DNA of 64,000 nt from a virus (lineage: Duplodnaviria; Heunggongvirae; Uroviricota; Caudoviricetes), in the IMG/VR virus record IMGVR_UViG_3300037455_000402, positions 10,951 through 74,950 of that record, one strand, 5' to 3'. Shown here piece after piece: positions 17,996-19,239 of this stretch. The position numbers and the translations under genes are program-made. Each line of letters starts with the position of its first letter. Positions within the stretch are counted from its first letter, which is position 1. The notes below the pieces were generated by a model, which was not told where the DNA came from, ran no database searches, and was given only the letters and a program-made list of their open reading frames with translations.

Positions 17996-18760
17996 TCACT
18001 CGAAATTAATTTTTGAATTGATATAATCTCTATCTTCTGTGAAGATTGGAATGTTATCATCAACTACCCAGCCTTCGTCGCTCTTGTAAACACAAGAACC
18101 ACGCTTCTGATATGTAGTAAGATTATTCCAATTAACTCCCTTCTCAGTGAACATCTTATCCTGTAAATCATTACAAGATAAGCCCTGAAGTTCCTTGTGA
18201 GAGAACATAGACTGAGCGAGAGCCTGAATTGAATTTCTTGTAGCGTCCTGCTGACGCCAGATTAAACAGTTAACAACCTCGTGTCTTGGAAGATTGAAAG
18301 CTCGGCAGTCGAAAAATGCTCCGTGATTTCTCTTGTTATTAAGAAGAGCACAACGAGGAGTCATCTTATTTCCTGCTTCTGCAAATAAATCTGCCGCCAT
18401 ATTGTCAATGGTAAAATTAAATGCCCAAGTTGCCATTGAAGCCGCAACAGCAGTCATCTTCTGAACATTATAATTATACCAACACTCGGTATCAATTGAC
18501 TGATAATCACAAAGCACAAGAGTAATTTCATCAGACTGAGTATATCCAAGAACACAGCCCTGAATATTCTTAGCAAGATACTCCATTGCATTTGTCATAC
18601 CTGCCTCAATTGCTTCATCAAAAGGCTTATCAAAACCTCTTGTAAAAGTATGGAAAGCTTTTCCATCAAGACGAAGAATTACTGGAGTCTTTTTCATAAG
18701 ATAATTCTTCGATACAGCTTCATAGCCTTTCATACGATTTCCTAATGAAGTCTTATCCAT
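17996..18760 (-). CDS. Thg1-like protein (tRNA-His guanylyltransferase / 3'-5' polymerase family)
   Basis: start at MDKTSLG (AAAGGAAG RBS); N-terminal ...MKKTPVILRLDGKAFHTFTRGF... matches the Thg1 signature around the catalytic RxDG/HxFT motif. Confidence 0.6.
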   Translation of the reverse strand: MDKTSLGNRMKGYEAVSKNYLMKKTPVILRLDGKAFHTFTRGFDKPFDEAIEAGMTNAMEYLAKNIQGCVLGYTQSDEITLVLCDYQSIDTECWYNYNVQKMTAVAASMATWAFNFTIDNMAADLFAEAGNKMTPRCALLNNKRNHGAFFDCRAFNLPRHEVVNCLIWRQQDATRNSIQALAQSMFSHKELQGLSCNDLQDKMFTEKGVNWNNLTTYQKRGSCVYKSDEGWVVDDNIPIFTEDRDYINSKINFE

Positions 18761-18783
18761 AACATATCTTCCTTTCTGATTTT

Positions 18784-18821
18784 CTATATATATTATAACA
18801 AAAATTTTGAAAAAAGTCAAG
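18784..18821 (-). promoter_or_regulatory. consensus promoter TTGACT-N17-TATAAT
   Basis: TTGACTTTTTTCAAAATTTTTGTTATAAT. Confidence 0.7.
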
Positions 18822-18830
18822 ATTTTTATT

Positions 18831-18904
18831 TGGTTGGGGCAGAGGGATTCGAACCCCCGATTGCAGGGTCAAAGCCTGTTGTGTTACCACTTCACTATAC
18901 CCCA
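18831..18904 (-). tRNA. tRNA-Gln(UUG)
   Basis: U1-A72 TGGGGTA/TGCCCCA; anticodon loop CTTTGAC; CCA encoded. Confidence 0.75.
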
Positions 18905-19163
18905 ATCTCTTCTGGTATAAATTCATAACATAGCCAAGTAAAACCATACGGATATGAATAGATACAGCGGTCATAAGTATAAAGAAAATGTCCCATTAGT
19001 CTGCGACCATAATCATCTTGGTAATTATTCATCACTAACCAGTTTTTGTATTCATCGGTATCTTCGATGTAATCCATAAACTATCTTATGGTTATATTTT
19101 CTAAATAGCTTTGATTGTCTTTTAATACTGTATAAGTCATATTCCTTTTCTCCTATAATTTGG

Positions 19164-19239
19164 TGGGGTGAAGGAGGAGAATCGAACTCCCAACTGCAGA
19201 GCCACAATCTGCCGTGATAACCATTTCACCACCGACACC
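19164..19239 (-). tRNA. tRNA-His(GUG) with encoded G-1
   Basis: anticodon stem GCAGA/TCTGC loop TTGTGGC; extra 5' G opposite C73; acceptor has U4-U69 and C5-U68 mismatches; CCA followed by a second CCA. Confidence 0.65.

Follow-up and report, generated by a model that had tools for sequence, protein, structure and literature searches.

A bacterial-type Thg1-like protein encoded at the edge of a phage tRNA array, next to a tRNA-His that already carries G-1: a probable tRNA 5'-end repair polymerase

The 64,000-nucleotide stretch of DNA analysed here (positions 10,951 to 74,950 of the IMG/VR record IMGVR_UViG_3300037455_000402, Caudoviricetes; hereafter the window) comes from a source described as a large gut-type phage, and contains a gene for a Thg1-like protein (TLP) at the upstream edge of a tRNA array. 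Because a megablast search of the 17-27 kb region against GenBank phages gave no match, this phage is not a described isolate. An exact match to the window TLP was found only in a contig of 1.8 kb. ARAGORN detected 43 tRNA genes and one transfer-messenger RNA (tmRNA) gene in the window, all on the minus strand. The TLP gene lies downstream of a tRNA-His gene on the same strand, with 403 nucleotides (nt) between the TLP start and the 3' end of the tRNA; an earlier note on this DNA had given the position of the tRNA and a spacing of about 400 bp, both correctly. The interval is not empty (Table 1), and no terminator-like site was predicted on the minus strand between the two genes.

The open reading frame (ORF) of the TLP spans 17996-18820 on the minus strand, the likely start being the ATG at 18760, which has GAAAGGAAG just 5' of it. 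The promoter-like site directly upstream is an 11/12 match and carries the TG extension. The earlier note had assigned the coding sequence to the Thg1 family without stating its strand, and profile searches bear the assignment out. The Pfam profile Thg1 (PF04446) matched over positions 2-130 of 130 with 106.2 bits (cut-off 29.2; E=1.5e-30), and PHROG 4717 ('tRNA-His guanylyltransferase') matched with E=4e-87; the Thg1 signature quoted in the note, PVILRLDGKAFHTFTRGF, corresponds to TLP residues 26-43. The Thg1 C-terminal domain (PF14413) scored 19.6 bits, below its cut-off of 26.3, and the C-terminal half of the protein aligns at 102 bits to the TLP of Bacillus thuringiensis (BtTLP). No NCBIfam model matched the protein.

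BtTLP (4KGK/4KGM) is also the best solved relative of the protein (E=1e-58), while eukaryotic Thg1 structures match it at only E=1e-12 to 6e-8. The AlphaFold model (predicted local distance difference test, pLDDT, 86.1; predicted template modelling score, pTM, 0.85) was used in a Foldseek search, and the 32 best PDB matches were all Thg1/TLP structures, headed by BtTLP (4kgm/4kgk; E=6e-26, TM score 0.76-0.86). Both the profile hit and the fold on which the family assignment had been made to depend are thus present. The HINNLYN motif, which is eukaryote-specific and reads the His anticodon (PMC6471195), is missing; its position reads ATRNSIQ (WRQQDATRNSIQAL), and ASKNSIS (WRQQDASKNSISMV) in BtTLP. 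Because BtTLP is by far the better match and HINNLYN is replaced, the protein is placed in the TLP clade rather than with Thg1, and sequence and model together indicate a bacterial-type TLP, not a eukaryotic-type Thg1.

An alignment of the catalytic residues, proposed in the earlier note as a check, showed that the active-site residues match those of BtTLP. The alignment is ungapped, and BtTLP R28, D30, H35, K43, S74, D75 and E76 correspond to R30, D32, H37, K45, S76, D77 and E78 of the window TLP. In BtTLP, D30, D75 and E76 are the metal-binding residues and third carboxylate, and K43, S74 and R28 act in activation and transfer (PMC3701042, PMC6471195). In alignments of 44-47 homologues with 49-97% identity, no variation is seen at D32, F36, H37, S76, D77, E78 and K101, while conservation is at least 90% at R30 and K45. 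The active site is therefore predicted to be catalytically intact, and enzymatic activity is to be expected by homology.

That the gene is a passenger, decaying or without function, is scarcely credible. The sporadic distribution of Thg1 among phages (PMC7824862) could be read in this way, but the ORF is intact and is provided with its own promoter-like site and ribosome-binding site, the catalytic residues do not vary, and the protein has at least 8000 homologues at E<=1e-20 (all 8000 scored candidates).

As stated in the earlier note, the tRNA-His gene encodes a G at position -1 opposite C73, as well as the CCA end. An AT dinucleotide directly precedes 36 of the 43 tRNAs in the window, against a background AT frequency of 8.5%. 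The tRNA-His is the only one among the 43 with a G at -1, and its AT sits one base further upstream (AAATGAT-G-GTGTCGG), so that the processing signal is aligned with a mature tRNA beginning at G-1. In the usual bacterial arrangement, RNase P leaves G-1 in place (PMC3245924). Because G-1:C73 is specified in the DNA and the AT leader is aligned with G-1, the addition of this nucleotide is, as judged from the gene itself, not needed for this tRNA-His, and the earlier note was right on this point too. A bona fide G-1-adding Thg1 goes together with a tRNA-His devoid of G-1, with A73, and with reading of the anticodon through HINNLYN; none of the three was found here, and the TLP is not an enzyme devoted to adding G-1 to the tRNA-His next to it. 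The presence of a TLP and a G-1-encoding tRNA-His in one genome is not a paradox, this being the normal bacterial and archaeal state (PMC3061083).

It should be noted that the encoded CCA of tRNA-His is directly followed by a second CCA (CCACCA; 19161-19239). This arrangement occurs in 1 of the 43 tRNAs, which is about chance level; it was discarded as a meaningful signal and not used as evidence.

Table 1. Position of the TLP gene, of the tRNAs discussed and of the surrounding features in the window.
Feature	Position	Strand	Basis and remarks
TLP coding sequence	17996..18760	-	254 aa; Pfam, PHROG, BtTLP 4kgk, AlphaFold/Foldseek
Promoter-like site TTGACTTTTTTCAAAATTTTTGTTATAAT	18792..18820	-	TTGACT-17-TATAAT; directly upstream of TLP gene
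tRNA-Gln(UUG)	18831..18904	-	between tRNA-His and TLP gene; ARAGORN, Rfam tRNA 64.9 bits
Small ORF	18895..19140	-	81 codons, one in-frame TAG; between tRNA-His and tRNA-Gln; translation
tRNA-His(GUG)	19164..19239	-	ARAGORN 19164-19238; Rfam tRNA 50.5 bits; G-1 = 19239, C73 = 19167, CCA 19166-19164; tandem acceptor mismatches U4.U69 + C5.U68
Promoter-like site upstream of tRNA-His	19301..19329	-	5' leader ~55 nt
tRNA array	2774..16910	-	39 tRNAs, tmRNA, ROOL RNA, RNaseH_like gene; downstream of TLP gene
tRNA-Ala(UGC)	3317-3392	-	acceptor mismatches U5.U68 + U6.U67
ROOL RNA, full-length	3408..4003	-	Rfam RF03087, 264 bits, E=3e-59; between tRNA-Ala and tRNA-Ile
tmRNA	13302..13652	-	tag peptide ANDFAFAA
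tRNA-Ser(GCU)	14034-14127	-	acceptor mismatch A2.C71
RNaseH_like gene	15875..16336	-	PF04308 E=2e-41; inside tRNA array
T4 Rnl1-type RNA ligase	21388..22512	-	PF09511 E=7.9e-14; 2.6 kb upstream of TLP gene
Metallophosphoesterase	32460-33173		Pfam/PHROG scan
Macro domain (borderline)	33183-33665		Pfam/PHROG scan
Nucleotidyltransferase	33662..34504	-	phrog_388 E=1.1e-12
DUF2828/DUF7788 protein, Ro/TROVE-like RNA-binding	38803..40281	-	Pfam; phrog_850 E=3.6e-123
Polynucleotide-kinase-like AAA_33 + HD phosphohydrolase	41715..42626	-	Pfam; phrog_505 polynucleotide kinase
Second RNA ligase	46045..46950	-	PF09414 E=8e-27

Acceptor-stem mismatches, which the earlier note had seen in several tRNAs, do exist, if a mismatch is defined as a pair that is neither Watson-Crick nor GU; they are confined, however, to three of the 43 tRNAs and 5 of 301 acceptor pairs. 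Mismatched pairs number 8/215 in the anticodon stems, 1/215 in the T stems and 7 in the D stems, and the rate in the acceptor stems is no higher than in the anticodon or D stems. Only tRNA-Ser(GCU) is mismatched within acceptor pairs 1-3, the other mismatches being at positions 4-6. Its A2.C71 is specific to the window, two relatives having G2-C71. Three genomes, with TLPs 77-97% identical, share the conserved tandem mismatch of tRNA-His (the copies in the relatives are at 5524-5598 of contig L001 and 9522-9596 of contig L020); the sole change, C5 to U5, does not restore pairing. When IMG/VR was scanned with the core sequence of tRNA-His, the L001 contig alone was returned, and no covariation test was possible. 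A tandem mismatch resembling that of tRNA-His is seen in tRNA-Ala(UGC), where U.U occurs at positions 5 and 6.

These counts bear on the possibility that the TLP is the polymerase of a mitochondrial-style 5' editing, in which mismatched 5' nucleotides would be removed and re-made from the 3' strand. Such editing acts on acceptor base pairs 1-3 (PMC6471195). The occurrence of mismatches in three tRNAs, the 5'-side nature of the change in tRNA-Ser(GCU), the conservation without correction of the tRNA-His mismatches and the ability of an archaeal TLP to add up to 13 templated nucleotides in vitro (PMC6471195) can be cited in its favour, but we consider it highly improbable. Mismatches are rare and just one is found in positions 1-3, so that 5' editing is not supported; the tRNAs of other TLP-carrying phages likewise show no mismatch excess, no positional pattern and no 5' bias, no gene linked to that of the TLP is a candidate for the 5' excision nuclease, and the conserved mismatch of tRNA-His does not amount to an editing system. 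Editing was therefore dropped as the main explanation, and with it the suggestion of the earlier note that the element edits its own tRNAs.

The gene order around TLPs was surveyed in IMG/VR, ENA, NCBI and Logan contigs and in GenBank phages. The order tRNA-His, tRNA-Gln, TLP is kept in L001 (TLP 97% identical to that of the window) and in L020/L021 (77%; contigs of 168-179 kb), and the adjacency to tRNA-His is absent in L002 and L022/23 (TLPs 68-70% identical), where genes for the ligase, the kinase-HD protein, the Ro-like protein and the metallophosphoesterase are still found no more than 10 kb from TLP. The adjacency thus belongs to a subclade, and it would be accounted for if the TLP were a back-up of tRNA-His identity, restoring G-1 with C73 as template on phage or host tRNA-His cut at +1 by RNase P; the main client of the enzyme would then be the tRNA-His of the phage, in which the acceptor stem is weakened. 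The main rival to a general role in tRNA repair is this identity back-up, which we nevertheless regard as unlikely. In its favour are the location of the gene 403 nt downstream of tRNA-His on the same strand, with no predicted terminator, in the window and in the 97% and 77% relatives, the conserved tandem mismatches at 4:69 and 5:68, which could disturb the choice of the RNase P site, and the in vitro addition of G opposite C73 by TLPs (PMC6471195, PMC3245924). Against it, G-1 should be retained in normal processing, given the position of the AT leader directly before it, and the distribution of phage TLPs does not follow tRNA-His.

When ten other phage lineages with a TLP were examined, the gene was beside tRNA-His in none of them (the lineages without adjacency being L002/L022, L003, L004, the L005-L019 clade, L033, L034, L035, Aeromonas phage 2L372D and Bacillus phage Bcp1). 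About half of the non-adjacent lineages have some tRNA within ~10 kb of TLP, and in no case is it tRNA-His. The TLP family is present in 164 GenBank phage records, with 39-54% identity to the window TLP, and the hosts include Bacillus (46), Prevotella (15), Caulobacter (13), Mycobacterium (11) and Brevundimonas (7), among others; the tRNA-His of Caulobacter crescentus is without G-1 (PMC3064791). Staphylococcus phage PMBT8 (MK893987.1, complete, 88 kb; L027, L028) encodes a TLP 45.6% identical to that of the window, and no tRNA gene was detected in its complete genome. In the Bacillus phages Bc431v3 and Bcp1 (Caeruleovirus), the TLP gene lies 83-85 kb from a tRNA-His with C1:G72, A73 and no G-1. 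The same features, with C or A at -1, are shared by the tRNA-His of Bc431v3 (L029 1202-1275), Bcp1 (L030), MrDarsey (L031) and Tsamsa (L032). Tsamsavirus phages thus carry the same Bacillus-phage-type tRNA-His, yet they are absent among the 60 of 164 TLP-positive records listed, which include 44 of the 46 Bacillus records. Taken as a whole, the distribution speaks against the identity back-up and shows no consistent association of phage TLPs with tRNA-His or with its G-1 status. Since PMBT8 has a TLP but no tRNA gene, acting on the phage's own tRNAs is not a general function of phage TLPs; the suggestion of the earlier note that the pairing of TLP and tRNA-His points to the phage's own tRNAs finds no support beyond the subclade to which the adjacency is confined.

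A stronger version of the link would be that TLP and the adjacent tRNA-His form a dedicated pair, the 5' strand of the tRNA being removed past position 5 and re-made, or extended opposite C73-C74-C75. The features that can be invoked for it are the conserved tandem pyrimidine mismatches at 4:69 and 5:68, the G-1:C73 pair and the encoded CCACCA. While a pair of this kind is very unlikely, it would, if true, be the first example of a bacterial virus that edits or remodels tRNA 5' ends.

The surroundings of the TLP gene are rich in functions related to RNA repair (Table 1). The distance from TLP to the Rnl1-type ligase is 2.4 kb in L020 and 6.8 kb in L022, and the linkage between TLP and RNA-repair genes is present in the window and in these two contigs (TLPs 70-77% identical in the relatives). 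No RNA ligase or kinase-phosphatase gene was found within 10 kb of the TLP gene in L033, L034 and L035. A conserved protein partner flanking the TLP gene was sought and not found, the neighbours differing between lineages; in the window, the neighbouring ORFs at 17657-17926, 19326-20072 and 20090-20410 gave no Pfam or PHROG match. The RNaseH_like gene within the array, which is possibly an RNA-processing nuclease, is kept at the same place in the 77% relative L020 (12562-13023), where the tmRNA counterpart encodes the tag ANDFALAA. The earlier note had also considered the countering of anticodon nucleases, but damage of this type is repaired by kinase and ligase enzymes, which are encoded separately in the window, and not by TLP.

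The motif TTGACTT-N14-17-TATAAT, to which the promoter-like sites belong, occurs in 22 copies in the window (0.01 expected), of which 21 are on the minus strand. Its form is TTGACTTTT...TGnTATAAT and, in addition to the two sites in Table 1, it is found for example at 5464-5492, 14509-14537 and 59416-59444. The extended -10 type of the motif suggests a Firmicute-like host sigma factor.

The presence of tmRNA and ROOL RNA in the same array raises the question of whether tRNAs are the substrate at all. The TLP might act on tmRNA, on ROOL RNA or on the 5' ends of other transcripts, or in nucleotide signalling through its GGDEF/Cas10-like palm; PMBT8, where a TLP is carried without phage tRNAs, and BtTLP, which accepts an external template oligonucleotide (PMC6471195), are compatible with such a role. 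We consider it quite improbable, because the window TLP is 43-47% identical over its full length to a tRNA-repairing TLP with the same active site, the structural matches to cyclase and Cas10 palms are weak (E above 0.02), and host tRNAs are available as substrates in every case.

On balance, the TLP is probably a general templated polymerase for the repair and quality control of tRNA 5' ends, used beside the tRNA supply and the RNA-repair genes of the phage. The characterised bacterial and archaeal TLPs repair 5'-truncated tRNAs in vitro whatever the tRNA species (PMC3061083, PMC6471195). By analogy with BtTLP, the enzyme would activate the 5'-monophosphate of a 5'-shortened tRNA with ATP or GTP, and would then extend the tRNA in the 3'-5' direction, each added nucleotide being selected by Watson-Crick pairing with the 3' strand of the acceptor stem, until a complete stem is regained. 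The comparative context suggests as likely substrates any phage or host tRNA with a damaged or mis-processed 5' end. The TLP could thus be part of an early-expressed kit for the supply and maintenance of tRNAs, together with the 43 tRNAs, the tmRNA, the two RNA ligases, the kinase-HD protein, the nucleotidyltransferase and the Ro-like protein. The TLP of Bcp1 (Bcp1_164; L025 12001-12735) matches 4KGK with E=2.5e-126 over its full length, which suggests either that the gene passed between phage and host or that BtTLP is of prophage origin; because BtTLP is so close to the Bacillus phage TLPs, the biochemistry of the phage TLP family is, in effect, already partly known.

Several points weigh against general tRNA 5'-end repair. 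A literature search yielded no experimental study of any phage TLP. To our knowledge, no host nuclease strips 5' nucleotides from tRNAs in phage defence, and those tRNA-targeting defence systems that a literature search brought up act on the anticodon or on the 3' tail. In addition, the linkage with RNA repair is lost in distant TLP phages, so that the apparent module may be a shared early-gene region, and general repair does not account for the tight and conserved adjacency to an unusual tRNA-His in the subclade. A role of 5'-end repair in the conflict between host and phage is nonetheless plausible, and has already been put forward as a hypothesis (PMC7824862).

For the cellular role of bacterial and phage TLPs, this locus represents a compact natural test case: an intact TLP is encoded co-directionally with a tRNA-His that needs no G-1, within an array of 43 tRNAs accompanied by ligases and a kinase. 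The comparison with one TLP phage that has no tRNAs, and with others that have a tRNA-His without G-1 or whose hosts do not use G-1, weighs against a tRNA-His-specific role, and directs attention to the repair of tRNA 5' ends in general. As a type of system, the locus is not new. In 2013, a possible action on phage or host tRNAs, as a modifying enzyme, was suggested for the Thg1 of phage Bc431v3 (PMC3601020); in 2021, Thg1, sporadic in jumbo phages, was discussed as an enzyme restoring 5' ends (PMC7824862). The TLP family is already annotated in more than 160 phage genomes, to which this gene adds a further member, and the adjacency of the gene to tRNA-His is specific to a small phage lineage.

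Other features of the window deserve mention. Two tRNAs have a CUA anticodon (13749-13825 and 14270-14344), and in-frame TAG codons are found in the ORFs 59448-62492 (20), 62502-63998 (13) and 53257-54318 (6). In the L020 homologue (9621-9869) of the small ORF between tRNA-His and tRNA-Gln, there are two in-frame TAGs, one of which matches a Gln codon in the window; this correspondence points to TAG being read as Gln. An adenylosuccinate-synthetase-like gene (42697-43848, minus strand; PF00709 E=6e-13) is PurZ-like, its match being phrog_1211 '2-aminooxy adenylosuccinate synthetase' (E=2e-33), and the phage might use 2-aminoadenine in its DNA, PurZ and PurA being the alternatives for this gene. 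Two of the predicted tRNAs on the minus strand are unusual: an odd 71-nt 'tRNA-Ser(GGA)' at 8482-8552 lacks both a long variable arm and an encoded CCA, and in a 79-nt tRNA-Ala(UGC) at 8818-8896, which is below the Rfam gathering score, the D loop and the variable region are enlarged.

Among the known systems, BtTLP is the one to which the window TLP can best be compared. The metal-binding Asp/Asp/Glu and the activation-site Lys/Ser are the same, and HINNLYN is found in neither. The two proteins differ in that they are 36-43% identical in the Foldseek alignments, and in the length of the segment between the aligned blocks, which is 29 residues (119-147) in the window TLP and 9 in BtTLP; the AlphaFold model predicts this stretch to be helical (H99-128 and H135-146). 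Furthermore, BtTLP repairs 5'-truncated tRNAs by templated 3'-5' addition (PMC3061083, PMC3701042), whereas the window TLP is phage-encoded and its activity is predicted. The phage proteins of PHROG 4717 (Bc431v3 gp143, Bcp1_164) belong to the same protein family, but the window TLP is located inside a tRNA array and close to a G-1:C73 tRNA-His, in contrast to the distant, A73-containing tRNA-His of Bc431v3 and Bcp1.

The eukaryotic Thg1 enzymes (yeast, human, Candida; 3OTB, 3WBZ, 5XOX) share the fold and the catalytic carboxylates with the window TLP, but they add G-1 opposite A73 without a template and recognize the GUG anticodon through HINNLYN, while in the window the motif is absent and tRNA-His has C73 and an encoded G-1. 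DdiTLP3 of Dictyostelium and mitochondrial editing offer the parallel of a TLP that carries out templated polymerization at the 5' ends of many tRNA species (PMC5041481, PMC6471195); that system, however, needs many tRNA genes mismatched in pairs 1-3, against one of 43 here. Finally, as in repair of the T4 Pnkp/Rnl1 type, the window encodes ligases (Rnl1-type and PF09414), a kinase-HD protein and a nucleotidyltransferase. The T4-type enzymes heal breaks in the anticodon loop, whereas the TLP would rebuild 5' ends, and the two activities may cooperate in the maintenance of tRNAs.

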